DNA of 50,016 bases from Planctomycetia bacterium (GCA_021413585.1 JAIOQB010000260.1:1-50016); one strand, 5' to 3'; shown: positions 1,772 through 25,200, numbered from the stretch's first letter. Notes: generated by a model from the letters alone, not told the origin. A program made the numbers and translations.

Positions 1772-1892
1772 GCGGTGGTTAGGACCTGGATCTTTGGCGT
1801 GGGGCGATGATCGGAGAACTCAGGCTGGAGCGCGGAACCGCCTGCGTCTGCTGATCCCATGTCAGTTGAACTTTGAACATGAGAATCACCGC

Positions 1893-3611
1893 ATGGCAAC
1901 AACGCAAAATGGTCCGTCGCGACCGCTGGTATTCATTGGCTCCTCTTCGGAAGGCATTGACGTCGCCATGGAAATCCAGGCGGCGTTGGTAGACAAATGC
2001 GACGTCATTGTTTGGAACCAATTCTTTTTTCACCAGGGTCAGGCATTTCTCGAAGGACTGACCTCGCAGGTGGACAAATTTGACTTTGCCGTATTGGTTT
2101 TCACTCCCGATGACTCTGTGAACGCGCGGGGCAAGGTGGGCCCAGCGCCACGCGACAACGTGCTCTTCGAACTGGGATTGTTCATGGGAGGCCTGAGTCG
2201 GAGCCGGACGTTCGTCATCTATGAGGATTGCGAGGGGTTCAAGATACCCAGCGATTTGGCGGGCATTGCCTATGCCTCATACCGCCGGTCCGAAGTGGTC
2301 CCGCTGACGGCGTCGCTTGGCCCTCCGTGCCTGGGGATACGCAAGGAAATTGTCACGCTCGGCCTGCGCAAGCGGTCGTTCCAACAGGAGACTCTGCCCC
2401 CGCCCACCAGCCCAAAACAGGGCGACATCGAAGACAAAGTGGGCAAGCTCGTCGACGAACATAGCGACATCATCGGCGCCTCCGAGGCGCCTCCGGGAAT
2501 GGAACTGTGGTATGAGCAGTTGCGGCCGGTGCTGCGGCAATCGGTTTACTACACCACGCCTACGTATTGGCTCGATACGAACCTCAATGTGTTGGATTGG
2601 AATATCGCCTTTGATCTGGTGTTTTCGGAGATCGCGCCGATCTTGCAGTATCGCCACGTCAACGAGTTGATTGCCCGCCTTGCGAACTACGACGCCGTGT
2701 TCAATCACGCGCGCGAATTTTCTCGCCGGGTCAACGATGGGGAAATGCCCGCCTGCGACATCGAGCCATTGGTTTACCAGTCCGCCCGCTATGGTGACGT
2801 GCGGATGTTGAAGGTTGCAACGCAATTGCATGATATTGAAGGAAGCCTGCGCGGTTGGAATGTTTCGTTGCTTTTGCAGCAGTTGGACTGGGAACTATTC
2901 CAACGGCTACTCGAAGAGCGCATCAACGACGACAAGATGTGGAGCGTCTATGCGTCCGCGTATGATCGCATCTTGACGGGCTATCCCCCTTATCAAAAGC
3001 TCTTGAGCGACGTGGCCTCGGTGGTCCCCGCTTCGGCCGCCATGGTGCTCGATGTGGGGGCTGGCACCGGGAACTCCACAGGAGTGCTGCTGGAGAGGGG
3101 GTTTTCGGTGGTGTCCCTGGAAAAGAACGCGACGATGATCGATCATCTGCGTGCCCGACATTTCGACGCTGCCAAGCATCGCATTGTAAAAGGCTCGGCG
3201 GACACCCTGCATACTTTGCGCAGTATCCAGGATGGAATTTTTGACGCGGTCATTCTCGTCAACGTGTTGTACGGCCTGGACGATCCACTTGCGTGCCTGA
3301 AGGGGGTAAATCGCGTCTTGAAGCCTGGCGGCGTTGTGGGCTTGTCGACGACGCACTCGGCGATTTCACTTGATTTATTGTTGGCGAATATAAAAACGTG
3401 GCTGATGAGCCAGAATTTGTTCGATAGCTTGCAGGATGACTACGACAAGTTGTGCGAGGTTAATATCCGAATCGAGCACACCATCGCGCGACGACATTCT
3501 GCCGACAATTACCGCGAAATGCTCCGCGAAGCCGGGTTTACCATCGAGCGGTGCGAAGATTACACGTACCAGGGTGCCGTCATGTTGGTTCATGCACGAA
3601 AGTTGGGGTGA
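1893..3611 (+). CDS. TIR-like (pfam10137/COG4271-type) nucleotide-binding domain fused to class I SAM-dependent methyltransferase
   Basis: N-terminal VFIGSSSEG...DFAVLVFTPDD...PRDNVLFELGLFMGGLSRSRTFVIYE...KIPSDLAGIAY matches the TIR-like CAP12-type domain signature; C-terminal VLDVGAGTGN...VLKPGGVVGLST is a Rossmann SAM-MTase motif I/post-I; likely start at Met34 of the listed ORF (ATGGCAACA at 1893). Confidence 0.7.
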   Translation: MATTQNGPSRPLVFIGSSSEGIDVAMEIQAALVDKCDVIVWNQFFFHQGQAFLEGLTSQVDKFDFAVLVFTPDDSVNARGKVGPAPRDNVLFELGLFMGGLSRSRTFVIYEDCEGFKIPSDLAGIAYASYRRSEVVPLTASLGPPCLGIRKEIVTLGLRKRSFQQETLPPPTSPKQGDIEDKVGKLVDEHSDIIGASEAPPGMELWYEQLRPVLRQSVYYTTPTYWLDTNLNVLDWNIAFDLVFSEIAPILQYRHVNELIARLANYDAVFNHAREFSRRVNDGEMPACDIEPLVYQSARYGDVRMLKVATQLHDIEGSLRGWNVSLLLQQLDWELFQRLLEERINDDKMWSVYASAYDRILTGYPPYQKLLSDVASVVPASAAMVLDVGAGTGNSTGVLLERGFSVVSLEKNATMIDHLRARHFDAAKHRIVKGSADTLHTLRSIQDGIFDAVILVNVLYGLDDPLACLKGVNRVLKPGGVVGLSTTHSAISLDLLLANIKTWLMSQNLFDSLQDDYDKLCEVNIRIEHTIARRHSADNYREMLREAGFTIERCEDYTYQGAVMLVHARKLG

Positions 3612-4692: not shown

Positions 4693-5607
4693 ATGAGCAA
4701 GGACGCCCCCATCGAAGTTGCCGAGTTGCCCGACGATCCACAGTTGCTGAAACAGCTTCTTGTTCAGCGCGAGGCAGTGATCGAACGTGTGAGGCATGAA
4801 GCGGCCGAGCGGATTCAGTCGCTTGAAGAGCGCATGGCCGCGATGGAAGCGGAACACAAGGCCGCCATCCTGGCCATCCTGCGGCGCTACTACGGTCCCC
4901 GCAGCGAGCGCTTCGACCCGCGGCAACTGCTGCTCTTCGGCCAGTTGATCGACCAGATGCCGCTGGACGAGGCGGGCGAGGAACTGACCACCCGCCGGAT
5001 CAAGAACCGCCACAAGCACGGCCGGCAGCAACTGCCCGACACGCTGCCGCGGATCGAGATCGAGCACGACCTGCCGGACGCCGAGAAGCCGTGCCCCTGC
5101 TGCGGCGAGCTGCGGCAACGGATCGGCCAGGACATCAGCGAGCAGCTCGAGTACTTCCCGGCCAGCTTCCAGGTGCTCAAGCACGTCCGCCCCAAGTACG
5201 CCTGCCCGAAGTGCGAGCAGGATGGCTACAACCCGCAGATCGCGGCGGCGCCCAAGCCGCCGCAGCCGATCGAGAAGGGGTTGCCGGGGCCGGGCCTGCT
5301 GGCCTATGTGGTCACGAGCAAGTTGGGAGACCATCTGCCGCTCTATCGGCTCGAAAAGATCTTCTCCCGGCAGGGGGTCCAGATCGCGCGGAGCACGATG
5401 TGCGCCTGGATGCAGGGGGGCGGCGACTTGGCCCGGCCGCTGGTGGACCTGAGGATCGGGCGCATCAAGCAATCGCGCGTGATCCACACCGACGACACGA
5501 CGGTTCCCGTGCAGGAGCGGGGCCTCACCACGGCCGACGGCCGGGGCAAGTGCAAGACGGGCCGCATCTGGACGTATCTCGGCGACGGCGCCAATAGGAT
5601 CGCCTGA
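4693..5607 (+). pseudogene. tnpC: IS66 family transposase TnpC, C-terminally truncated (~300 of ~510 aa)
   Basis: Leucine-zipper N-term, CPCCGELRQRIGQD...KYACPKCEQDG zinc-ribbon, HLPLYRLEKIFSRQGVQIARSTMCAWM core; ORF stops at 5607 well before the normal C-terminus. Confidence 0.85.
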
Positions 5608-18632: not shown

Positions 18633-18719
18633 GGAAGTCATCCGGCTGGATGAGGACCCTGTCTCGAAAACAGGCGTCCCGATACATCGGGATTGTGGGT
18701 TCGAGTCCCACGGCTTCCG
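18633..18719 (+). tRNA. tRNA-Ser (CGA), type II
   Basis: CCTGT-CTCGAAA-ACAGG, long variable arm, GTGGGTTCGAGTCCCAC, 87 nt. Confidence 0.75.
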
Positions 18720-18722
18720 CAC

Positions 18723-18795
18723 AGTCCTGTGGCCTAGCGGCGAAGGCAGCTCCCTTACAAGGAGACGATCGGTGGTTCGAGTCCACCCAGGACTA
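18723..18795 (+). tRNA. tRNA-Val (TAC)
   Basis: perfect acceptor AGTCCTG/CAGGACT, loop CTTACAA, GGTGGTTCGAGTCCACC. Confidence 0.75.
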
Positions 18796-18837
18796 CTGCG
18801 AAATTGTACTCCTCACGCTCCGCGTGAGGGAAAGCAT

Positions 18838-18913
18838 GCAGGCTGTAGGCGGGAGACTGAAGACTGGAGGAAGAAATGATTTCCTCCAGTCTTCAGCCTC
18901 CAGTCTCAAGTCT
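18838..18913. repeat. inter-tRNA hairpin repeat H8 (itself flanked by short palindromes CCTCACGCTCCGCGTGAGG 18808-18826 and CATCACGCGGAGCGTGATG 18919-18937)
   Basis: gcaggctgtaggcgggagactgaagactggaggaagaaatgatttcctccagtcttcagcctccagtctcaagtctacc. Confidence 0.7.
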
Positions 18914-18949
18914 ACCCCAGGCATCACGCGGAGCGTGATGGGTACTATG

Positions 18950-19022
18950 GCCCAGGTACGCCAACGGCAGAGCGGCTCGGCTTAAACCCGAGTGATTGCA
19001 GGTTCGACTCCTGCGCTGGGCA
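18950..19022 (+). tRNA. tRNA with Leu anticodon TAA but type-I (short variable arm) body, A73
   Basis: GCCCAGG-TA-CGCCAACGGCAGAGCG-G-CTCGG-CTTAAAC-CCGAG-TGATT-GCAGGTTCGACTCCTGC-GCTGGGC-A; 73 nt. Confidence 0.6.
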
Positions 19023-19064
19023 CAGGGAGATGTGCGATGTGCGATGGTGGATGTAAAAACGCGG

Positions 19065-19137
19065 GCCCAGGTACGCCAACGGCTGAGCGGTCTGGCTTAG
19101 AACCAGATGTTTGCGAGTTCGAATCCCGCCCTGGGCA
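19065..19137 (+). tRNA. tRNA with Leu anticodon TAG, type-I body, A73
   Basis: GCCCAGG...TCTGG-CTTAGAA-CCAGA-TGTTT-GCGAGTTCGAATCCCGC-CCTGGGC-A; same D-arm family as 18950. Confidence 0.6.
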
Positions 19138-19183
19138 CTTACGTAGTTCTTCAATCGCAAATCATCAATCGCAAATCACAAAC

Positions 19184-19258
19184 GTCCTCGTGGAGCAGTC
19201 CGGAGTGCTCGTCTGGTTGTCAACCAGAAGATCGCGGGTTCAAATCCCGCCGGGGACG
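19184..19258 (+). tRNA. tRNA-Asp (GTC)
   Basis: GTCCTCG/CGGGGAC, TCTGG-TTGTCAA-CCAGA, GCGGGTTCAAATCCCGC. Confidence 0.8.
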
Positions 19259-19263
19259 CTGGC

Positions 19264-19346
19264 GGCAGGCTGGAGACTAGAGGCTGCAGGAAGGACGCGC
19301 ATCGCGTCCACTTCTACCTCCAGCCTACAGTCTCAAGCCTACAGCC
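19264..19346. repeat. inter-tRNA hairpin repeat H9
   Basis: ggcaggctggagactagaggctgcaggaaggacgcgcatcgcgtccacttctacctccagcctacagtctcaagcctacagcct. Confidence 0.7.
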
Positions 19347-19352
19347 TCTTGA

Positions 19353-19428
19353 AGCACGGTACGCAATCTGGAAAAGCGGCGAAGCTCAAACCTTCGTGAT
19401 TCTGTGGGTTCGACTCCCATCCGTGCTA
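19353..19428 (+). tRNA. tRNA with Leu anticodon CAA, type-I body, A73
   Basis: AGCACGG-TA-CGCAATCTGGAAAAGCGG-CGAAG-CTCAAAC-CTTCG-...GTGGGTTCGACTCCCAT-CCGTGCT-A. Confidence 0.6.
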
Positions 19429-19431
19429 CTA

Positions 19432-19517
19432 GCAGGCGGGAGACTTGAGGCTTGAGGGGTGAGAAAACAAAGCGCGTTCCATTTCCTCAGGCCTACAGCC
19501 TCAGGTCTCAAGCCTAT
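19432..19517. repeat. inter-tRNA hairpin repeat H10
   Basis: agcaggcgggagacttgaggcttgaggggtgagaaaacaaagcgcgttccatttcctcaggcctacagcctcaggtctcaagcct. Confidence 0.65.
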
Positions 19518-19522
19518 CCTCC

Positions 19523-19604
19523 GCGTCGGTTGGGCATTGGCAAGCCTCAGTGGCCGTAACCCACTCGCCTTCGGGCTTTGCAGGTTCAACTCCTGCCCGG
19601 CGCA
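19523..19604 (+). tRNA. tRNA-Tyr (GTA), type II
   Basis: AGTGG-CCGTAAC-CCACT, long variable arm CGCCTTCGGGC, GCAGGTTCAACTCCTGC. Confidence 0.7.
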
Positions 19605-19608
19605 CTGA

Positions 19609-19782
19609 CTAGGCTGCCTTTCGCATTGCCAGTTCGTGAATGATCAAACCGACCCCGACAAGGCAGAAACAAACGGCAGCGATAATTTTCCCAATACTGT
19701 GATCCCCGTTGGCGCTGATACCCAGAGCCGGGCCAACGGCACCGGCCAGCACGCCACCAATGAGGATCTTTAGCTTGTTCAT
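19609..19782 (-). CDS. small membrane protein (GlsB/YeaQ/YmgE transglycosylase-associated family-like), 57 aa
   Basis: MNKLKILIGGVLAGAVGPALGISANGDHSIGKIIAAVCFCLVGVGLIIHELAMRKAA; two hydrophobic helices with Gly-rich pattern; below the 60-aa ORF-track cutoff. Confidence 0.5.
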   Translation of the reverse strand: MNKLKILIGGVLAGAVGPALGISANGDHSIGKIIAAVCFCLVGVGLIIHELAMRKAA

Positions 19783-19872
19783 TCGGCGTCTATGACTTGA
19801 TTGTCATGGATCCTGCGGGACCAGTTCATTCATCATAACGCTCGTTGCAGGAGCCGCAAAGACAATAACTTA

Positions 19873-19945
19873 GGCCCGTTCGTCTATCGGTTGAGGACAC
19901 CAGCCTCTCAAGCTGGAAAGATGGGTTCGATTCCCATACGGGTCA
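19873..19945 (+). tRNA. tRNA-Glu (CTC)
   Basis: paralog of 16749 tRNA; CCAGC-CTCTCAA-GCTGG; GGGTTCGATTCCCAT. Confidence 0.75.
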
Positions 19946-19949
19946 CTGA

Positions 19950-20034
19950 GGCAGGCTGGAGGCGTGAGACTGGAGGTGGGAGGAAACTGCACTCGTTCTA
20001 CAGACTCCAGCCTCAAGCCTACGGCCAGACGATG
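19950..20034. repeat. inter-tRNA hairpin repeat H11
   Basis: gcaggctggaggcgtgagactggaggtgggaggaaactgcactcgttctacagactccagcctcaagcctacggcc. Confidence 0.65.
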
Positions 20035-20101
20035 CAGGGGGGCAGGTGCCCAACTGGCTTTCATATGGCCGGTGCGCCCGGTTCGATACCGGGACCTGCA
20101 A
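20030..20101 (+). other. tRNA-like remnant (perfect T-arm and 6-bp acceptor pairing, no canonical D/anticodon arms)
   Basis: ...gcaggtgcccaactggctttcatatggccggtgcgCCCGGTTCGATACCGGGacctgca. Confidence 0.3.
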
Positions 20102-20165
20102 CTAGCAAATGCCGCCGCCGACCTGTGAGGGAGGATGAAGGCCGCACGCGGAAGCAGCGACATGA

Positions 20166-20234
20166 CGCGGGTGGGCCAGTGCTCAACGAGGTCTCATAAG
20201 CCTCGTCCGCCGGGTGCGACCCCCGGACCCGCCA
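20166..20234 (+). tRNA. tRNA-Met (CAT); variant T-loop TGCGACC
   Basis: GAGGT-CTCATAA-GCCTC anticodon arm; CCGGG-TGCGACC-CCCGG; 6-bp acceptor. Confidence 0.5.
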
Positions 20235-20240
20235 CTGACA

Positions 20241-20318
20241 GAGGCTGGAGACTGGAGGCTTGAGGCGGGGGGCACAAAAGCAGTTTTCCTACAGCCTACA
20301 GTCTCAAGCCTTCAGCCT
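20241..20318. repeat. inter-tRNA hairpin repeat H12
   Basis: gaggctggagactggaggcttgaggcggggggcacaaaagcagttttcctacagcctacagtctcaagccttcagcct. Confidence 0.7.
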
Positions 20319-20324
20319 AAACAC

Positions 20325-20401
20325 GACCGGGTACGCAAACTTGGCAAAGCGATCACGTCGAGAGCGTGATGATTTTGTGGGTTCGACGCCCACCCCGGTT
20401 A
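20325..20401 (+). tRNA. tRNA with Leu anticodon GAG, type-I body, A73
   Basis: GACCGGG-TA-CGCAAACTTGGCAAAGCG-ATCACG-TCGAGAG-CGTGAT-...GTGGGTTCGACGCCCAC-CCCGGTT-A. Confidence 0.55.
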
Positions 20402-20405
20402 CTGA

Positions 20406-20490
20406 AGCAGGCTTGAGGCTGAAGGCTATAGGCTGAAGGAAAAAACGTCATCCGTAAATCCCTCCAGCCTAAAGTCTCAAGCCTCATGCC
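20406..20490. repeat. inter-tRNA hairpin repeat H13
   Basis: agcaggcttgaggctgaaggctataggctgaaggaaaaaacgtcatccgtaaatccctccagcctaaagtctcaagcctcatgcct. Confidence 0.65.
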
Positions 20491-20497
20491 TATCAAC

Positions 20498-20568
20498 GGG
20501 CTGCTCGTCCAACGGGAAGACCCCTGGCTTGCAACCAGGAAATCGGGGTTCAACTCCCCGGCAGTCCA
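20498..20568 (+). tRNA. tRNA-Ala (TGC) with G3:U70
   Basis: GGGCTGC/GCAGTCC acceptor carries the Ala identity pair G3:U70; CCTGG-CTTGCAA-CCAGG; CGGGGTTCAACTCCCCG. Confidence 0.75.
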
Positions 20569-20573
20569 CTGAG

Positions 20574-20647
20574 AGAGGCTGGAGGCTAGAGACCTGAGGC
20601 GGGAGGAAGAAACGTCCTCATGCCTACAGCCTCAAGTCTCAAGCCTG
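20574..20647. repeat. inter-tRNA hairpin repeat H14
   Basis: gagaggctggaggctagagacctgaggcgggaggaagaaacgtcctcatgcctacagcctcaagtctcaagcct. Confidence 0.7.
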
Positions 20648-20651
20648 AAAC

Positions 20652-20741
20652 GGAAGGTAGCCGGATACGGCTAGCCGGGCCGGTTTGCTAAACCGTGCGA
20701 CCCCGAAAGGGGTCATGAGGGTTCGAATCCCTTGCCTTCCG
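20652..20741 (+). tRNA. tRNA-Ser (GCT), type II
   Basis: CCGGT-TTGCTAA-ACCGT, variable arm GCGACCCCGAAAGGGGTCAT, GAGGGTTCGAATCCCTT; 90 nt. Confidence 0.75.
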
Positions 20742-20748
20742 CTTTTTG

Positions 20749-20827
20749 CAGGCTGGAGACTTGAGGCGGGACGAAGAAAAGGCAAAACACCTTCGTCCTC
20801 CAGCCTACAGTCTCAAGTCTCAAGCCT
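20749..20827. repeat. inter-tRNA hairpin repeat H15
   Basis: gcaggctggagacttgaggcgggacgaagaaaaggcaaaacaccttcgtcctccagcctacagtctcaagtctcaagcct. Confidence 0.7.
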
Positions 20828-20833
20828 GCCCAC

Positions 20834-20908
20834 GGTGTCTGTAGTGTAGCGGTTTCTGCACGTCTGGCTGTGAACCAGAAGGTGGCGGTTCGACTCCGCC
20901 CAGATACC
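20834..20908 (+). tRNA. tRNA-His (GTG) with genomically encoded G-1 opposite C73
   Basis: g-GTGTCTG...TCTGG-CTGTGAA-CCAGA...GGCGGTTCGACTCCGCC-CAGATAC-C. Confidence 0.8.
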
Positions 20909-21050
20909 CCTATGAAGAAAATGACGAATGTCTAAGCACGAATGACGAAGAATGGGCGCGAACTTATTGCCGCCCTGCTTCGTCAGTAGGGCATTCGGAC
21001 TTCCTTCGACATTCGGATTTAGAAATTAGTCGTTAGATATTGGAACCACC

Positions 21051-21647
21051 ATGATTCCCAAGGTACTTCAGCGCCCGACTTTGGTGCTTAACCGCAACTG
21101 GCAGCCTGTCAGCGTGGCCACGGTGGCCCGCGCGCTGGTGATGCTGTGGAACGAGACGGCCCGCGTGGTGGACCCAGCTGACTTTCGGCTCTATAGCTGG
21201 GCCGATTGGTCGCGGCTGGCTCCGCGCGAGGGGGACGCCGTCGTGCGGGGCTGTTCGCTGCACTTGCGGGCGCCGGAAGTGGTTGCGCTGAGCGACTACG
21301 ACCGGTTGCCGACGGCGGCCGTGACGTTCAGCCGGCGGAACATCTTCAAGCGGGACCACTACACCTGTCAGTATTGCGCTGCCCAGCCGGGAAGCGAGGA
21401 GCTGACGCTGGACCACGTGGTGCCGCGCTCGCAAGGTGGCCAGTCGAGCTGGACGAACTGTGTGCTGGCGTGCGTGGAGTGCAACCGACGGAAGGCTGAC
21501 CGGACTCCCGATCAGGCGCGAATGCACCTGCGCAAGCCGCCGATCCGCCCGACCTGGAAGCCGCTCTACGCGCAGCACCGGGTGCGGATCGAAAGCTGGT
21601 CCAAGTTCGTCAGCGAGGCGTACTGGAACATTAGGCTTGAGACTTGA
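21051..21647 (+). CDS. HNH endonuclease
   Basis: 198 aa; ...HYTCQYCAAQPGSEELTLDHVVPRSQGGQSSWTNCVLACVECNRRKADRTP = HNH motif with Zn-binding cysteines; sits inside the tRNA array. Confidence 0.85.
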   Translation: MIPKVLQRPTLVLNRNWQPVSVATVARALVMLWNETARVVDPADFRLYSWADWSRLAPREGDAVVRGCSLHLRAPEVVALSDYDRLPTAAVTFSRRNIFKRDHYTCQYCAAQPGSEELTLDHVVPRSQGGQSSWTNCVLACVECNRRKADRTPDQARMHLRKPPIRPTWKPLYAQHRVRIESWSKFVSEAYWNIRLET

Positions 21648-21726
21648 GGCTGGAGACTGGAGGAAAGTAGAAAAGAAAAGTCGTCCCTATTCTTCCTCCA
21701 GCCTACAGTCTCAAGCCTACAGCCTG
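21636..21726. repeat. inter-tRNA hairpin repeat H16 (begins within last codons of HNH gene)
   Basis: ggcttgagacttgaggctggagactggaggaaagtagaaaagaaaagtcgtccctattcttcctccagcctacagtctcaagcctacagcct. Confidence 0.7.
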
Positions 21727-21734
21727 CCCGTGTC

Positions 21735-21830
21735 AGGCTGGAGGAGTAAGGCTGGAGACTGGAGGAAAGGGAAGGGGATCGAATCGGCTTCGTATCTTTC
21801 CTCCCGCCTACAGTCTTCAGCCTACAGCCT
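21735..21830. repeat. inter-tRNA hairpin repeat H17
   Basis: caggctggaggagtaaggctggagactggaggaaagggaaggggatcgaatcggcttcgtatctttcctcccgcctacagtcttcagcctacagcct. Confidence 0.7.
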
Positions 21831-21836
21831 CCCCAC

Positions 21837-21906
21837 ACGAGCGTGCTCCTGGGTGAGCAGCCAGCCTCCAAAACTGGCGCACGGGGTTCGACTCAACGCG
21901 CTCGTG
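21837..21906 (+). tRNA. tRNA-Trp (CCA), imperfect T-stem and 31:39 C.A
   Basis: ACGAGCG/CGCTCGT perfect acceptor, D-stem GCTC/GAGC, CCAGC-CTCCAAA-ACTGG, GGTTCGACTC T-loop. Confidence 0.5.
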
Positions 21907-21910
21907 CTTT

Positions 21911-21985
21911 TGAGGCTGGAGGCTGGAGACCTGAGGCTGGAGGATGAAAAACCTCTCAAGTCTCACAACTCAGACCTCAAGACTA
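21911..21985. repeat. inter-tRNA hairpin repeat H18
   Basis: gaggctggaggctggagacctgaggctggaggatgaaaaacctctcaagtctcacaactcagacctcaagactacc. Confidence 0.65.
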
Positions 21986-21989
21986 CCAC

Positions 21990-22063
21990 GCCGACGTGGC
22001 TCGACTGAGAAAGGCGCCTGTCTTGTAAACAGGACCATGCTGTTGCGAATACAGTCGTCGGCC
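21990..22063 (+). tRNA. tRNA-Thr (TGT); T-loop variant TGCGAAT
   Basis: perfect acceptor GCCGACG/CGTCGGC, CCTGT-CTTGTAA-ACAGG, GCTGT-TGCGAAT-ACAGT. Confidence 0.65.
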
Positions 22064-22148
22064 CCATACCCAACCATCCCGATGGTTCAATTCCCGGTCG
22101 GGGTAGTAACGCAACCAATGAAACCAAGAGAAACAAAGATGATCGCAT

Positions 22149-22220
22149 GGCCCGTTGGTGTTCTGGATGGCATTGCAGCCTCCGAAGCTGCAGGATCAGG
22201 TTCGATTCCTGGACGGGCTA
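22149..22220 (+). tRNA. tRNA-Arg (CCG)
   Basis: GGCCCGT/ACGGGCT acceptor, GCAGC-CTCCGAA-GCTGC, TCAGGTTCGATTCCTGG. Confidence 0.6.
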
Positions 22221-22242
22221 CTCATGGCGATGGACGTGCATC

Positions 22243-22644
22243 ATGGAGACATTCATTCGTTTTCAAACCTCGATAAGGTGTACCTTCACCGGTAGGCCAT
22301 TGGGTATTTTTCGCGCGGCGGGTTACGTCAAGCACGCATACCGGATCTCAAGCGACACCGCTGAGCGGATTCAGGAAGCGATTGCGTGGTTCAATGTAAA
22401 CTTGCCGGCACCGACGCTGCATGGCAGAAAAGCTCCCCGCAGTCTGTTCTGGTTTCGATCGGACGCGGCGGAGGCTGTTGTCCGGGCGAGCGACCTCATT
22501 GAACTGCTGCAAGCCGAAGACGTGGAAGTTGAAGCGCAGCGAACGGCAACCCCGGGAGCGATCGTTTACTCGGACGTAATGCAAGTTGCCGCGATACCAG
22601 ACAGGAAGCTACGACGATTTACCATCCATGCCCTGCGAGTGTGA
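22243..22644 (+). CDS. hypothetical protein (133 aa) embedded in tRNA array
   Basis: Listed ORF 22147-22644 overlaps tRNA-Arg(CCG); first ATG downstream of the tRNA is 22243 (METFIRFQ...); no recognisable domain. Confidence 0.35.
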   Translation: METFIRFQTSIRCTFTGRPLGIFRAAGYVKHAYRISSDTAERIQEAIAWFNVNLPAPTLHGRKAPRSLFWFRSDAAEAVVRASDLIELLQAEDVEVEAQRTATPGAIVYSDVMQVAAIPDRKLRRFTIHALRV

Positions 22645-22701
22645 CGGACGGCACAGCAGAATTCGAATCTGCAAGACGGGGTTCGACTCCTCGGCGGGGA
22701 A
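22630..22701 (+). tRNA. tRNA-Arg (TCG)
   Basis: GCAGA-ATTCGAA-TCTGC anticodon arm, CGGGGTTCGACTCCTCG T-arm; 1:72 mismatch. Confidence 0.5.
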
Positions 22702-22708
22702 CTGGGAC

Positions 22709-22783
22709 AGGCTGGAGGCTGGAGGCTGTAGGCTGAAGGAAGTTGGAACCTCTTCTTCCTCCAGTCTCCAGCCTACAGCCTAA
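22709..22783. repeat. inter-tRNA hairpin repeat H19
   Basis: caggctggaggctggaggctgtaggctgaaggaagttggaacctcttcttcctccagtctccagcctacagcct. Confidence 0.7.
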
Positions 22784-22786
22784 CAC

Positions 22787-22859
22787 GTCCTCGGAGTGTG
22801 CCGGAGTCGCACGCGACATTGCGAAGGTCGAAGATTGGGTTCGATTCCCAACGAGGGCA
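22787..22859 (+). tRNA. tRNA-Arg (GCG)
   Basis: GTCCTCG/CGAGGGC acceptor, CGACA-TTGCGAA-GGTCG, TTGGGTTCGATTCCCAA. Confidence 0.55.
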
Positions 22860-22974
22860 TTTTTATGCAAGCAACATGGTGCCGCCGGGCCAGCGGCACA
22901 CTGACTCGGCGCCGAGCATGCTCGGTGGCCGGCGCGGTGTGTTCCGGACATGGGATATAACGAGGGCGGCGCCA

Positions 22975-23048
22975 GCGTGGTTAGCTCAGTTGGAATGAGC
23001 ACCAGATTCACACTCTGGCTGTCACGGGTTCGACTCCCGTACCACAAC
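22975..23048 (+). tRNA. tRNA-Val (CAC)-like, possible pseudogene (two acceptor-stem mismatches)
   Basis: canonical D-arm TAGCTCAGTTGGAATGAGC, CCAGA-TTCACAC-TCTGG, perfect T-arm ACGGGTTCGACTCCCGT, but acceptor GCGTGGT vs ACCACAA pairs only 5/7. Confidence 0.45.
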
Positions 23049-23490: not shown

Positions 23491-24597
23491 ATGGTGTTCC
23501 TGAAGCGAATCAAGATCCGCAGCTACGAAATCGGCCTGCTTTTCAAGAGTGGCGAGTTCAAGGGCCTGCTGGCTGAGGGGACGCACTGGCTGCTTGACCC
23601 GTTTGGCCGGGTCCGCGTCGAGGTCGTCTCGCAGCGGCAGCCGTGGCTGGCGCACGAGAAGCTCGATCTGATCGTCAAGTCGGGTGCGCTGGCCGCCCGC
23701 GCTGAGGTTCTGGACCTGAAGGACCACCAGCGGGCCCTGGTCTGGATCGACGGTCGGTTCAGCCATGTGCTGCCGCCGGGTCAGTTCGCCTACTGGACTG
23801 GCAAGAGAGACGTGAAGGTCGAAGTGGTCGACGCGCGGACGGTGCGCTTCGAGCACGCGGACCTGAAGGTCATCACCCGGTCGCCTATGGCGGACCGACT
23901 GCTGGACGTCTGCGCGCTCGAGCGGAACCATGTCGGTGTCCTGTTCCAGGACGGCCGTTATGTGGACACGCTCGCGCCGGGCCTGTACGCCTTCTGGCGG
24001 AACACGCAGGAGGCGAAGCTCGTCGAGCTGGACATGCGCGAAACGATCATCGACGTCGGTGGTCAGGACATCATGACCAACGATAAGGTCACGCTGCGGC
24101 TGAACGCCGTGGTGGCGTACCGCATCGTCGATGCTCGGCAGTCGGTCATCGCGACCGATGACGCCAAGCAGGCTCTGTACCGCGAGGCGCAGCTCGCGCT
24201 GCGCGCGGTCGTCGGCGCTCGGGAGTTGGACGCGTTCTTGACCGATAAGGACACGGTGGCTCGCGAGGTCGAGGAGCAGCTTCGCGTCCGCGCCGGCCAG
24301 TTGGGTCTGGAGGTCGCTTCGGTAGGTGTGCGCGACATCATCCTGCCAGGCGAGATGAAGGACCTGATGAACAAGGTCACGGAGGCCAAGAAGGCCGCCG
24401 AGGCCAACCTGATTGTCCGTCGCGAGGAAACGGCCGCCATGCGCAGCCAGGCCAACACGGCCCGACTGCTGGCCGACAACCCGACGCTCATGCGCCTGCG
24501 TGAGCTCGAAGTTCTCGAAAAGGTCGCCACGTCGAGCAAGCTCAACGTGATCCTGGGCGAGAAGGGGTTGGCGGATCGCGTGGTCAATCTGTTGTAG
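23491..24597 (+). CDS. SPFH/Band-7 domain protein (slipin-like)
   Basis: 368 aa; central DNVTLRLNAVVAYRIVDARQSVI...ALYREAQLALRAVVG and coiled-coil C-term typical of SPFH family. Confidence 0.75.
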   Translation: MVFLKRIKIRSYEIGLLFKSGEFKGLLAEGTHWLLDPFGRVRVEVVSQRQPWLAHEKLDLIVKSGALAARAEVLDLKDHQRALVWIDGRFSHVLPPGQFAYWTGKRDVKVEVVDARTVRFEHADLKVITRSPMADRLLDVCALERNHVGVLFQDGRYVDTLAPGLYAFWRNTQEAKLVELDMRETIIDVGGQDIMTNDKVTLRLNAVVAYRIVDARQSVIATDDAKQALYREAQLALRAVVGARELDAFLTDKDTVAREVEEQLRVRAGQLGLEVASVGVRDIILPGEMKDLMNKVTEAKKAAEANLIVRREETAAMRSQANTARLLADNPTLMRLRELEVLEKVATSSKLNVILGEKGLADRVVNLL

Positions 24598-24750
24598 GGA
24601 AGCTATTGGCTGTCGGCTGTCGGCTTTCAGTGGTCGACAACATCGCCCCCGGTTCCAGCAATGGACCGGGGGCGTTTTTATGCGCCCCTTAGGGCGTGGT
24701 ATCATGGGCAGACTCTGAACTGGTCACTGGAATAGTTGAGGATCAGCGTG

Positions 24751-25200
24751 ATGCAAATCTGGGTAGATGCCGACGCCTGCCCCGGCGTGATCAAGGAGTT
24801 GCTATTCCGCGCCGCGAATCGAACCAAGACCAAGGTCACGCTGGTCGCCAACCAACCCATGCACACGCCGCGCTCCGAGTTCATCGACCGCTTGCTCGTC
24901 CCCGGGGGGATGAACGTCGCTGACCGGCGCATTGTGGAATTGGTCGAGCCGGGCGATCTGGTGATTACGGCTGACATTCCGCTGGCTGCGGACGTGGTCG
25001 CCAAAGGGGGGCAGGCTCTCAACCCACGCGGCGAGTTGTACACTCATGCCAACGTCGGCGAGCGGCTGGCGGTGCGGAATCTGTTGGATGAACTGCGCGG
25101 AGGGGGCCAGATCACGGGAGGACCGGCGAACTTCAACGCCAAGGATCGCCAGGCGTTCGCCAATCAACTCGATCGCTGGCTGACCGCGGCGACGAGATAA
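24751..25200 (+). CDS. yaiI: YaiI/YqgE (UPF0178/DUF188) family protein
   Basis: [34 protein letters not shown]...[17 protein letters not shown] matches DUF188 signature. Confidence 0.8.

Follow-up and report, generated by a model that had tools for sequence, protein, structure and literature searches.

Leucine tRNA genes with short variable arms in a tRNA array of a Planctomycetia bacterium

Four genes within a tRNA array of a Planctomycetia bacterium are real tRNA genes with leucine anticodons and short variable arms; they were found in a stretch of 50,016 nucleotides, which was analyzed as a whole and is called the window here. With a probability of roughly 0.6, we regard them as supernumerary leucine isoacceptors of a lineage in which the variable stem-loop was shed while the bacterial tRNALeu body is otherwise intact. 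This large and conserved lineage, which occurs in arrays of Planctomycetota and in many phages, is apparently undiscussed in the literature, where the sole documented bacterial exception has so far been treated as a Streptomyces rarity.

Structure of the four tRNA genes

The four genes are listed below with coordinates to the discriminator base A73, followed by those of the ARAGORN calls.

18950..19022 (ARAGORN 18950-19023), plus strand: tRNA-Leu(UAA), 73 nt; variable loop TGATT (5 nt); mismatch G7-G66
19065..19137 (ARAGORN 19065-19138), plus strand: tRNA-Leu(UAG), 73 nt; variable loop TGTTT (5 nt); T-stem mismatch A52-C62
19353..19428 (ARAGORN 19353-19429), plus strand: tRNA-Leu(CAA), 76 nt; variable loop TGATTCT (7 nt); U15 in place of the A15 of the family
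20325..20401 (ARAGORN 20325-20402), plus strand: tRNA-Leu(GAG), 77 nt; variable loop TGATTTT (7 nt); A26

The calls agree with the preliminary description of this DNA, which had reported tRNAs of these four anticodons with arms of 5-7 nt, cloverleafs of 73-77 nt, and an A73 discriminator. Given gene lengths of 73, 73, 76, and 77 nt to A73, a long arm cannot fit. The cloverleaf is the minimum free energy (MFE) fold of the Leu(UAA) gene, and a refolding with a canonical long arm (a stem-loop of at least 10 nt), which had already been sought in vain, appears in none of the MFE and centroid folds of the four genes. In the same array, the variable region measures 15-20 nt in three Ser genes and 14 nt in the Tyr gene.

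The D arm common to the four genes consists of U8 and A9, a 3-bp stem (CGC/GCG), and a loop of the form A14A15...GG...A-N-A; the shared D arm described earlier is thus borne out in these elements but not at position 26, which is A rather than G in the GAG gene. A14, G18G19, U48, and A73 are present in all four genes, A15 and the A at 20a in three each (the exceptions being the CAA gene and the UAG gene, which has U at 20a), and CCA is encoded in none.

The Rfam tRNA model (RF00005; gathering score, 29) gives 46.8 bits for the UAA gene, 54.6 for the UAG gene, and 44.6 for the CAA gene. The GAG gene is called by ARAGORN but goes unreported by this model even at E ≤ 10; its anticodon loop reads U32 C33 GAG A37 G38, and this UC-GAG-AG loop is kept in 51 of 70 Leu(GAG) orthologues. 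A hidden Markov model (HMM) of the short-armed family, built without any sequence of the window, matches exactly four sites in the window, which are the UAA (E = 4e-15), UAG (1e-16), CAA (8e-18), and GAG (6e-14) genes, and the next-best tRNA of the window scores only 21.7 bits. Within the family, the four copies rank at the 15th to 70th percentile of scores.

Conservation of the family

The family set comprises 300 distinct short-armed Leu sequences, in which 95% of the stem positions are paired. In a MAFFT alignment of 110 family sequences, 96.7% of the cells pair, and 19 of the 20 pairs have changed on both sides. The covariation score of 0.616 compares with 0.198 in shuffles, none of 500 of which reaches it, and, with the partners slid, with no more than 0.131. 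A14 is invariant in this alignment and G18G19 and the T loop are conserved, while A15 is less strict; U8-A14 is likewise conserved in the family, the last base of the variable loop is U (U48) in about 98% of the members, and A73 is found in 294 of 300 (98%). The anticodon loop is canonical (U33 and A37) in three of the four lineages, the Leu(GAG) lineage having C33, and most CUN-reading Leu genes in the arrays carry A37, not G37. Conserved positions together with strong compensatory covariation indicate conserved RNAs and not decaying pseudogenes. Judged from these substitution patterns, the four genes of the window belong to a large family that is under structural selection.

Organization and surroundings of the array

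The array and the features in and around it are as follows.

16492..16522, plus strand: GC-rich hairpin followed by a T run, a terminator-like site 68 nt 5' of the first tRNA gene
16590..23048, plus strand: tRNA array of 33 genes (ARAGORN) in one orientation, 6,459 bp, 5.1 genes per kb, 18 amino acids
17425-17497, plus strand: tRNA-Ile(UAU), a member of the array (Rfam, 66.5 bits)
19609..19782, minus strand: 57-aa hydrophobic open reading frame (ORF) with a weak Transgly_assoc match (E = 0.004)
21051..21647, plus strand: HNH endonuclease gene inside the array, between tRNA-His and the next tRNA gene (Pfam HNH, 1.3e-14; PHROG HNH endonuclease, 7e-34)
23491..24597, plus strand: SPFH/Band-7 protein gene directly 3' of the array (Pfam Band_7, 7e-31)

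L-arrays, or tRNA array units, are defined as 20 or more tRNA genes in one orientation with 2 or more per kb (Tran et al. 2016, PMC4758250), and the array of the window, with 33 genes at 5.1 per kb, is one. It probably forms part of an L-array that is common to many Planctomycetota and some tailed-phage contigs and has its own HNH gene. Trp and Cys genes, both of which occur in most related arrays, are absent. The Leu(CAG) slot is likewise empty of a tRNA gene; the place that a long-armed tRNA-Leu(CAG) takes in related arrays, as inferred from synteny, is occupied by the 57-aa ORF, which has no homologue in the collected array loci. A hairpin insert known from related arrays is not present in the window.

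The hairpin 5' of the array belongs to a leader, GCCCGGTGTCAC...GACAYCGGGC-TTTTT, that precedes tRNA-Phe in about 45 of the 57 arrays with upstream sequence (an estimate by eye). An Rfam search of the leader gave no match; the hairpin is a candidate terminator, attenuator, or operator conserved in these arrays. Homologues of the SPFH/Band-7 gene lie 3' of the arrays in 14 loci. Direct repeats are found immediately 5' of the array in the window, as they are just 5' of the Anabaena L-array (Santamaria-Gomez et al. 2021, PMC8421152).

The array is flanked in the window by genes for a sulfatase, GH2 and GH127 enzymes, and an outer-membrane protein and by an IS66 fragment. A phage genome was considered as the origin of the window and rejected: when the array was compared by megablast with 50,697 phage records, the only match was a weak one to a tRNA-Ser. 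On account of the flanking genes and the near absence of phage matches, a bacterial chromosome is preferred. The preliminary description had spoken of charging by a host LeuRS, as would suit a phage genome, and this picture gives way to that of an array on a bacterial chromosome that appears to spread horizontally within Planctomycetota.

At a distance of 10 kb from the array, there is a tandem of units resembling Y RNA and tRNA. A candidate Ro60/Rsr gene beside these repeats was discarded, as its product has no TROVE domain and no match among solved structures.

Relatives in bacterial genomes and phages

A pattern scan of genome contigs yielded at least 120 loci, almost all in Planctomycetota; the pattern was derived from the four window genes themselves, and the counts therefore describe the short-armed lineage and not all tRNALeu. 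Each of the listed loci has a syntenic array, mostly of 20-39 tRNA genes, with a few loci represented by fragments only. The gene order of the window array matches that of at least 120 genome loci and of two viral loci (L003 and L006), and this order is kept across orders of Planctomycetota. Stieleria sedimenti ICT_E10.1, Thalassoglobus neptunius KOR42, and Rhodopirellula baltica are examples of planctomycetes with such arrays. The architecture is thus not restricted to the window; it is common among these relatives, with one published bacterial precedent, in S. coelicolor. Among the listed loci, short loops (≤9 nt) are found in 95 of 106 CAA, 68 of 70 GAG, 55 of 55 UAA, 52 of 52 UAG, and 21 of 78 CAG genes. 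Most arrays retain one long-armed Leu(CAG), and Ser and Tyr genes in the listed arrays stay long-armed apart from single exceptions. HNH homologues occur in 46 of 132 array loci (genome scan and first viral scan together); they lie on the same strand as the tRNA genes, in most cases between His(GUG) and Trp(CCA). Some genes in related arrays have disrupted anticodon loops.

Between genomes, the tRNA genes are approximately 75-87% identical while the spacers do not align, and the genomes that bear arrays have no flanking genes in common. In the viral contig L006, the syntenic array adjoins tape-measure and tail-fiber genes. These comparisons of gene order and context, together with the embedded HNH gene, support an array that is mobile and spreads horizontally. 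The short-armed Leu lineage also occurs in cultured phages, i.e., Mycobacterium phage Wildcat, Gordonia phage Boopy, and crAss-like phage cr111_1, and on IMG/VR and jumbo-phage contigs; the phage members score 34-55 bits with the family HMM. The plasmid collection gave no match to the family consensus, and E. coli genomes gave none to the long-armed Leu(CAG) of the arrays.

It is rather unlikely that the four genes, or the array as a whole, are nonfunctional remnants of a cluster gained by horizontal transfer, neither expressed nor charged and in slow decay. Kim et al. (2016, PMC4807772) termed planctomycete clusters of this kind degenerate, with low Cove scores, and the L-arrays studied in other bacteria are poorly transcribed, being almost silent in normal growth (PMC8421152). 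Every copy in the window also has a small blemish (G7-G66 in UAA, A52-C62 in UAG, U15 in CAA, and C33 together with the failure of the Rfam model in GAG), Leu(CAG), Trp, Cys, and further members found in related arrays have disappeared from this one, and the disrupted anticodon loops of some related genes would fit decay as well. Against this reading stand the compensatory covariation and the near-invariant tertiary positions across divergent genomes, the identity of the tRNA genes next to spacers that do not align, the gene order conserved across orders of the phylum, and the unexceptional ranks of the window copies within the family.

Descent from long-armed tRNALeu and probable leucine identity

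Alignment of the short-armed sequences with two long-armed references, E. coli leuV and the array-borne Leu(CAG), shows essentially one difference, a deletion of 47a-n; U44 G45 ... U48 are kept. Column for column, they share with leuV U8, the 3-bp D stem, A14 A15, G18G19, the A-N-A end of the D loop, U44 G45, U48, the T loop, and A73. Unlike canonical long-armed bacterial tRNALeu, such as leuV, they lack the 47a-n stem-loop, have A rather than G at position 9, and have the D stem CGC/GCG instead of GCG/CGC or GUG/CAC; moreover, the CUN readers have A37, not G37, and the GAG lineage has C33. Variable loops of 5, 6, 7, 9, 10, and 11 nt occur within the CAA lineage, e.g., TGATCGTCT and TGACATGTCT. 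A classifier restricted to unpaired and tertiary positions assigned 197 of 289 sequences (68%) to long-armed Leu. A figure of 73% assigned to Leu by full-length profiles was set aside, as members of intermediate length in the training set had inflated it. With the long-armed Leu class restricted to loops of at least 13 nt, the short-armed sequences score below 15 against every full-length isotype profile, including that of long-armed Leu(CAG), while true members mostly score 45-64; these scores rule out a recent derivation from another isotype of the array and say nothing positive on Leu. As read from the alignment, the short-armed lineage descends from long-armed tRNALeu by loss of the variable stem-loop.

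Among 290 genes with the family D arm and A73, 277 have Leu anticodons, and most of the exceptions are genes in which an insert breaks the anticodon loop. The preliminary description had offered two readings of this body, namely leucine tRNAs of unusual architecture and a switched identity that would recode Leu codons. All of the in silico evidence fits the first (A73 in 294 of 300, the identity set, the leuV alignment, and Leu anticodons in 277 of 290), and recoding is unlikely. A switch would mean that another synthetase charges the short-armed body, so that Leu codons are partly recoded or mistranslated; this has very little probability in our estimation. The hallmark long arm is indeed missing, and the full-length profiles score the body poorly against long-armed Leu(CAG) and weakly against Tyr, Gln, Glu, or Thr. 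However, all five Leu anticodons occur on one body, so its identity must be independent of the anticodon, which leaves LeuRS, SerRS, or AlaRS, the synthetases whose recognition has this property. SerRS requires a long arm and G73, and AlaRS requires G3:U70. The family has neither G73 nor a long arm, A73 being present in 98%, and the 3:70 pair is G:U in only 1 of 300 members and otherwise C:G or U:A. In addition, no other array isotype fits (scores below 15), the body is hardly ever found with an anticodon other than Leu, the same arrays contain a long-armed Leu(CAG), and it would be toxic to recode six codons by way of supernumerary genes.

The four tRNAs most likely still carry leucine, as their sequences suggest. 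In E. coli, leucine identity is set by A73 and elements of the elbow, not by the long arm or the anticodon; the set comprises A73, A14, A15-U48, G18G19, and A at 20a, the long arm is dispensable for leucylation, and a minimal arm-less tRNALeu is still charged (PMC9976931). The LeuRS of S. coelicolor charges a natural short-armed tRNALeu(CAA), which the E. coli LeuRS does not, and this system needs a special LeuRS domain (LSD) and does not use A73 (PMC6614811). In view of the failure of the E. coli enzyme and the requirement for the LSD, compatibility with the planctomycete LeuRS cannot be assumed.

We infer the expression, leucylation, and translational use of the short-armed tRNAs, and likewise the reason for their arm loss. 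The array would be transcribed as one polycistron, from which the tRNAs would be cut out and then completed by the CCA-adding enzyme of the cell, which is invoked because no CCA is encoded. The single LeuRS of the cell would charge them with leucine by reading A73 and the elbow of the D and T loops (U8-A14, A15-U48, G18G19, and A at 20a). The UAA and CAA tRNAs would then decode UUA/UUG, the UAG tRNA CUN, and the GAG tRNA CUC/CUU, which together are all six Leu codons. By analogy with published tRNA counts of other planctomycetes, the array Leu genes would be supernumerary: a planctomycete genome has 5 Leu genes when its tRNA genes number 44-46, and 8-12 when it is rich in arrays (PMC4807772, Table S3).

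A role away from translation, with the tRNAs acting as decoys, regulators, or amino-acid donors off the ribosome, is barely probable. The conserved hairpin leader, the Y-RNA-like tandem 10 kb away, and the cryptic appearance of arrays in other bacteria (PMC8421152) would agree with it, but conservation extends to the anticodons, which form a complete set for decoding Leu, the loops have U33 and A37 in three of the four lineages, the T loops and acceptor stems are conserved as use by EF-Tu and the ribosome would require, and the arrays as wholes cover 18-20 amino acids.

Loss of the variable arm

Neutral loss of the arm would be sufficient, because bacterial LeuRS does not need the long arm. 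A rather unlikely reading is that the loss was adaptive, i.e., that the array is a mobile backup tRNA set whose Leu members dodge a factor recognizing long-armed (class II) tRNAs, such as a tRNA-cleaving defense or toxin nuclease, or that the short arm averts mis-serylation by SerRS in a new host. This reading refines and does not contradict the preferred one, that of supernumerary leucine isoacceptors that shed the stem-loop, because the tRNAs would still carry leucine. It is favored by the concentration of the lineage in two settings, the tRNA clusters of phages and an array that spreads horizontally, and by the fact that only Leu sheds the arm, which is retained in Ser and Tyr, where the synthetases require it. 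The conserved and very unusual C33 of Leu(GAG), together with the A37 of most CUN readers, recalls the anticodon-loop changes by which phage tRNAs evade anticodon nucleases, as reported in eLife (PMC10264068); VapC52 is reportedly a tRNase cutting in the variable loop, and human SLFN11 is reported to select class II tRNAs (cited in PMC13056530). On the other hand, one long-armed Leu(CAG) is retained in most arrays, and nothing within the window ties the array to a defense system. We know of no bacterial nuclease that is specific for long-armed tRNALeu. The bacterial Schlafen characterized to date cleaves several short-armed tRNAs, and does so in the anticodon arm (PMC13056530).

In its fullest form, which we likewise hold to be improbable, the short arm would be an evolved device for escape and orthogonality: a pan-phage tRNALeu lineage would be chargeable by any bacterial LeuRS and unseen by arm-reading host factors (defense nucleases, toxins, and SerRS), and the planctomycete array, with its HNH gene and hairpin leader, would be a domesticated, stress-induced, nuclease-resistant backup decoding set.

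Comparison with known systems

The closest precedent is the type I tRNALeu(CAA) of S. coelicolor (Fan et al. 2019, NAR, PMC6614811), which resembles the window genes, in a comparison by description only, in being bacterial and having a Leu anticodon and a short variable loop (5 nt in S. coelicolor; 4-5 nt for the type I tRNALeu). It coexists with long-armed tRNALeu and a single LeuRS, is leucylated, and depends to an important degree on U8-A14 (PMC6614811). Two of the window genes have the same loop length of 5 nt and two have 7 nt. The S. coelicolor tRNA is encoded by one essential housekeeping gene for UUG, whereas the window has four probably supernumerary genes in an array that appears mobile. 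Coexistence with a long-armed tRNALeu is seen in the related arrays, through Leu(CAG); the window array has no CAG gene. Our search of the literature on short-armed Leu tRNAs in phages, arrays, and mycobacteriophages found only the S. coelicolor paper (PMC6614811). A full set of short-armed Leu isoacceptors kept under structural selection in at least 120 array loci goes beyond a Streptomyces rarity. Its natural intermediates of 5 to 13 nt provide material for studying LeuRS recognition without the arm, and the lineage bears on why Leu can shed the arm while Ser and Tyr retain it and on the selection behind mobile tRNA arrays and phage tRNAs.

The array resembles L-arrays (PMC4758250, PMC8421152) in its single orientation and neighboring homing-type endonuclease and probably in its supernumerary genes and horizontal spread, and it shares with the degenerate tRNA gene clusters of Planctomycetes (PMC4807772) a canonical tRNA-Ile(UAU) within the cluster. 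It differs from published L-arrays in that the order of the planctomycete array is conserved across the phylum and an HNH gene lies inside the array of the window. The regulation and function of L-arrays are known for Anabaena only. No mention of short-armed Leu genes was found in the available portions of these three reports.

Animal mitochondrial tRNALeu and engineered arm-less E. coli tRNALeu resemble the window genes in their short loop, A73/A14 identity, and leucylation (PMC9976931); mitochondrial tRNAs differ in having a dedicated LeuRS and relaxed structures, and the minimal substrates from E. coli are artificial.

In mycobacteriophages, Gordonia phages, crAss-like phages, and jumbo-phage contigs, the same lineage is annotated plainly as tRNA-Leu, and we found no published comment on the short arm; isotype-aware tRNA annotation may mark such genes as mismatches or pseudogenes. 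The tRNA-Leu genes of the phage clusters (Wildcat, Boopy, cr111_1, and IMG/VR contigs) are 73-78 nt long and have U8 A9, a D stem of 3 bp, and an AAA..GG..AAA D loop. These clusters differ from the array of the window in that they belong to true virus genomes with unrelated hosts (Actinobacteria and Bacteroidota), have another gene order, and in some cases encode CCA. The variable loops of their tRNA-Leu genes are TGTTT or TGATTAT with A73, as in the lineage described here, and Ser and Tyr tRNAs in the same clusters are long-armed.

Structure of the short-armed tRNA-Leu genes

ARAGORN places 33 tRNA genes at 16590-23048 of the window, all on the + strand. Four of these have leucine anticodons and, in the ARAGORN structure parse, a variable region of 5 or 7 nt:

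18950, +, tRNA-Leu(UAA), variable region TGATT (5 nt)
19065, +, tRNA-Leu(UAG), variable region TGTTT (5 nt)
19353, +, tRNA-Leu(CAA), variable region TGATTCT (7 nt)
20325, +, tRNA-Leu(GAG), variable region TGATTTT (7 nt)

Each cloverleaf has a 7-bp acceptor stem, a 3-bp D stem, normal anticodon and T arms, and a short variable loop, whereas other genes of the same array have variable regions of 15-20 nt (three Ser genes) and 14 nt (Tyr). The genes span 73-77 nt to A73 and therefore leave no room for a hidden long arm; thermodynamic folding gave the short-armed cloverleaf for three of the four and a long arm for none (0/4). The Rfam tRNA model (gathering score 29) scored UAA, UAG, and CAA at 46.8, 54.6, and 44.6 bits, respectively, and missed the GAG gene even with the cutoff relaxed to E ≤ 10. 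A family profile HMM, trained on 106 relatives with the window sequences left out, matched the window exactly at the four genes (E 8e-18 to 6e-14), the best other tRNA reaching only 21.7 bits. The preliminary description of four Leu-anticodon tRNAs on a short-armed body is thus borne out by ARAGORN, by Rfam for three genes, and by the HMM for all four, as are the A73 and the common D arm; a long variable arm, which by that description would refute it if re-folding produced one, was absent from all four.

The anticodon loop of Leu(GAG) (20325-20401, +) reads U32 C33 G A G A37 G38. U33 is near-universal in tRNA, and G37 is usual for bacterial CUN-reading Leu tRNA; C33 is kept in 51 of the 70 Leu(GAG) orthologues among the matches listed, and A37 takes the place of G37 in most array Leu genes that read CUN.

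Conservation and distribution

Relatives were sought in two collections with a degenerate pattern made of the common D arm, the anticodon loop, and the T arm, which picked out 12 viral contigs and at least 120 loci in bacterial contigs (one genome per species). The genome loci among the matches listed are nearly all from Planctomycetota (Planctomycetaceae, Pirellulales, Thermoguttaceae, Isosphaeraceae, Gemmataceae, and Kuenenia) and include the isolates Stieleria sedimenti and Thalassoglobus neptunius.

Table. Short-armed genes (variable loop of 9 nt or less) by leucine anticodon, among the genome-locus matches listed
CAA: 95 of 106
GAG: 68 of 70
UAA: 55 of 55
UAG: 52 of 52
CAG: 21 of 78

The Ser and Tyr genes of these loci are long, single exceptions apart. 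Among the matches listed are 300 distinct short-armed sequences, with A73 in 294, U8 A9 in 88%, a variable loop ending in U in about 98%, canonical T loops, and 95% of stem positions paired by many pair types per position. In an independent MAFFT alignment of 110 sequences, 96.7% of the cells of the specified cloverleaf are paired, and both sides have changed at 19 of 20 pairs; the covariation score of 0.616 exceeds that of shuffles (0.198, with 0 of 500 as high) and of partners slid by 1-3 columns (at most 0.131). Because ARAGORN preselects cloverleaves and the loci were fished with a pattern made from these same genes, these numbers describe this lineage only. Within it, the family statistics exclude unconstrained decay, and the window copies rank at the 15th to 70th percentile of family scores. 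The feature is real and goes beyond a curiosity of the window.

A relaxed pattern retrieved 53 viral contigs of 6 to 497 kb, in which 92 short-armed and 70 long-armed Leu genes occur side by side and every Ser and Tyr gene has the long arm. When deposited phage genomes were searched by BLAST with the family consensus, annotated tRNA-Leu genes came up in phages of Mycobacterium, Gordonia, Bacillus, Acinetobacter, and others; such sequences are thus in public databases under the name tRNA-Leu. Examples are:

Mycobacterium phage Wildcat, short-armed tRNA-Leu genes of 74 and 73 nt
Gordonia phage Boopy, short-armed tRNA-Leu genes of 75-76 nt
crAss-like phage cr111_1, short-armed tRNA-Leu genes of 78 and 75 nt

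These share the architecture of the window genes and score 34-55 bits with the planctomycete-derived HMM. A literature search found no paper discussing short-armed phage or array tRNA-Leu, the sole match for "type I tRNALeu" being a study of Streptomyces coelicolor.

Descent and amino acid identity

The four genes align column for column with E. coli leuV and with the long-armed Leu(CAG) of related arrays (U8, the 3-bp D stem, A14 A15, G18G19, the A-N-A end of the D loop, U44 G45, U48, the T arm, and A73), from which they differ by removal of the extra stem-loop. Loops of 5, 6, 7, 9, 10, and 11 nt occur in the CAA lineage (e.g., TGATCGTCT and TGACATGTCT) and look like stages of shrinkage; phage contigs carry 10-nt and 13-nt forms alongside 5-nt ones.

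In a naive-Bayes isotype test that was trained on the other array tRNAs and made blind to the anticodon and the variable region, true members mostly scored 45-64 and short-armed Leu scored below 15 in every class, which rules out recent anticodon mutants of another isotype; the test cannot tie short-armed Leu to Leu(CAG), since the Leu(CAG) class consists of one paralogue whose stems are peculiar to it. With unpaired and tertiary positions only, 197 of 289 short-armed genes were classed as long-armed Leu; of the four in the window, UAA and CAA fell there, UAG tied with Gln, and the unusual anticodon loop of GAG made its assignment weak.

A Leu anticodon is present in 277 of the 290 genes that combine this D arm with A73; in most of the others, an insert breaks the anticodon loop. 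As five anticodons share one body, identity must be anticodon-independent. Three synthetases ignore the anticodon: LeuRS, SerRS, which needs a long arm and G73, and AlaRS, which needs G3:U70 (PMC9976931). The 3:70 pair of the family is C:G or U:A and never systematically G:U. Of the three enzymes, LeuRS is the one left. An identity switch that recodes Leu codons, the alternative raised in the preliminary description, is unlikely; the four genes would instead yield leucine-accepting tRNAs that jointly read all six Leu codons.

In E. coli, leucine identity lies in A73, A14, A15-U48, G18G19, and A20a, the long arm is not part of it, and a minimal tRNALeu without the arm is still charged (PMC9976931). 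The LeuRS of S. coelicolor charges a natural short-armed tRNALeu(CAA), on which E. coli LeuRS fails and in which A73 is unused (PMC6614811); given this failure, planctomycete LeuRS can only be predicted to charge the short-armed tRNAs. The arm was probably lost because bacterial LeuRS can do without it, perhaps helped, speculatively, by selection in mobile elements for compactness or for escape from arm-reading factors.

The array as a probable mobile module

Each listed locus has an array, mostly of 20-39 tRNA genes (a few are fragments only), in essentially the gene order of the window: Phe Glu Pro Ile Lys Ile(UAU) Lys Thr Gly Pro Asn Ser Gly Gln Gln Ser Val, then Leu(UAA) Leu(UAG) Asp Leu(CAA) Tyr Glu Leu(CAG) Met Leu(GAG) Val Thr Ala Ser Arg His [HNH] Trp Thr Arg Arg Arg Cys. 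Other features in and around the window array are:

1794-3611, +, fusion of a CAP12/Pycsar-type TIR domain and a SAM methyltransferase, possibly defence-related
4693-5607, +, truncated IS66 transposase
17425-17497, +, canonical-looking tRNA-Ile(UAU), 66.5 bits
19609-19782, -, 57-aa hydrophobic ORF
20033-20102 and 20166-20235, +, two CAU-anticodon genes of 70 nt with a very small D arm
21051-21647, tRNA strand, HNH endonuclease gene inside the array (Pfam 1e-14, PHROG 7e-34)
23491-25200, +, SPFH/Band-7 gene (23491-24597, directly 3' of the array) and DUF188 (YaiI/YqxD) gene

tRNA-Ile(UAU) is rare in bacteria and is present in most related arrays. The 57-aa ORF occupies the slot that holds long-armed tRNA-Leu(CAG) in related arrays, matches Transgly_assoc weakly (E 0.004), and has no homologue in the fetched related loci. 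The Rfam tRNA model missed both CAU genes, one of which matches the tymovirus tRNA-like element (26 bits); CAU genes of 69-72 nt recur at this slot in many related arrays.

Among the matches listed, HNH homologues occur in 46 of 132 loci, in the orientation of the tRNA genes and usually in the His-Trp interval, and SPFH homologues hold the same position as in the window in 14, a recurrence that could mean either that the SPFH gene and the array are functionally linked or that insertion favours this site. Apart from these two genes and the tRNAs, the window flanks match almost none of the listed loci. In the viral contig L006, a syntenic array directly follows tape-measure and tail-fibre genes. 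The array therefore appears to be a mobile module, present also on a tailed-phage contig. The window itself is no phage genome. The array is flanked by ORFs for a sulfatase, glycosidases of families GH2 and GH127, an outer-membrane protein of Legionella type, and an aminotransferase, as well as by the IS66 fragment and TIR fusion, which lie 11-15 kb to its 5' side. A search of 50,697 phage records gave the array no near relative.

The array is most likely a supernumerary, horizontally acquired tRNA operon. Published Leu-gene counts fit a supernumerary array: planctomycetes with 44-46 tRNA genes have five, and array-rich ones have 8-12 (PMC4807772). "Degenerate tRNA gene clusters" with a canonical tRNA-Ile(UAU) were reported in Planctomycetes by Kim et al. 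2016 (PMC4807772), and "tRNA array units" have also been described (PMC4758250), as have "L-arrays", which are passed on horizontally, lie next to a homing endonuclease, and are switched on under translational stress in Anabaena (PMC8421152). The feature is a variation on short-armed tRNALeu, L-arrays, and phage tRNA clusters, not a new kind of system.

A hairpin insert of 22-24 nt (YCGGGCACCG-N8-10-GGTSG) lies in about 15-20 array tRNA genes (Leu, Thr, Gly, Pro, Phe, and Arg) of related loci, e.g., L023:7105, L023:7210, L047:4597, L120:2632, and L021:6841, either in place of the anticodon or within the D loop. Possible readings are a mini mobile insert, an intron-like element, and a scar left by an endonuclease; a motif search of the window found no copy.

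Leader, spacers, and repeats

Sequence elements around the array and downstream of it are:

16492-16522, +, GC-rich hairpin and T run, GCCCGGTGTCAC..GACATCGGGC-TTTTT, just 5' of the first tRNA
16529-16583, 14-nt direct repeats TGCGCTCGTTTGA and TGCGCTCGCTTGA, between this hairpin and tRNA-Phe
16668-22781, spacers, most of them hairpins of about 80 nt built of degenerate heptads
16570, 32772, 33149, and 33348 (+) and 31339 (-), 9-mer TTGCGACTT
32580-33400, +, Y-RNA-like region, a tandem of three or four units that each carry tRNA-like T and D arms

Most of 57 related arrays (about 45 by visual estimate) keep the leader hairpin sequence 5' of tRNA-Phe, often preceded by TTGCGCTTGTGACRC. The leader matched zero Rfam families and may serve the array as a promoter, attenuator, or operator.

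The spacers carry AGGCTGG, AGGCTTG, or AGACTGG on the 5' arm and the complements on the 3' arm, forming 30 inverted-repeat pairs; all 71 double-heptad matches fall within the array, and six or more are found in only five other loci among the matches listed (the related arrays L046, L022, L068, L081, and L090). These hairpins may be processing signals or a small repeat element.

The five copies of TTGCGACTT, against 0.42 expected in the window, include one directly 5' of the array and three at the 3' ends of Y-RNA-like units, which may be a shared motif or coincidence. These units are framed by CCCGTACCCAACGGCA...CTACAAAC and CGCTTTTGCGACTTGTACGGG. Rfam gives a YrlA-like match at 32682-32759 (36.4 bits, E 8e-6, below the gathering score of 69) and a second, sub-threshold one at 33060-33133. 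Just 3' of the units are a 541-aa ORF (33499-35124), in which no TROVE/Ro60 signal was found, and an AAA ATPase gene. The Y-RNA-like region is shared with the related array locus L022.
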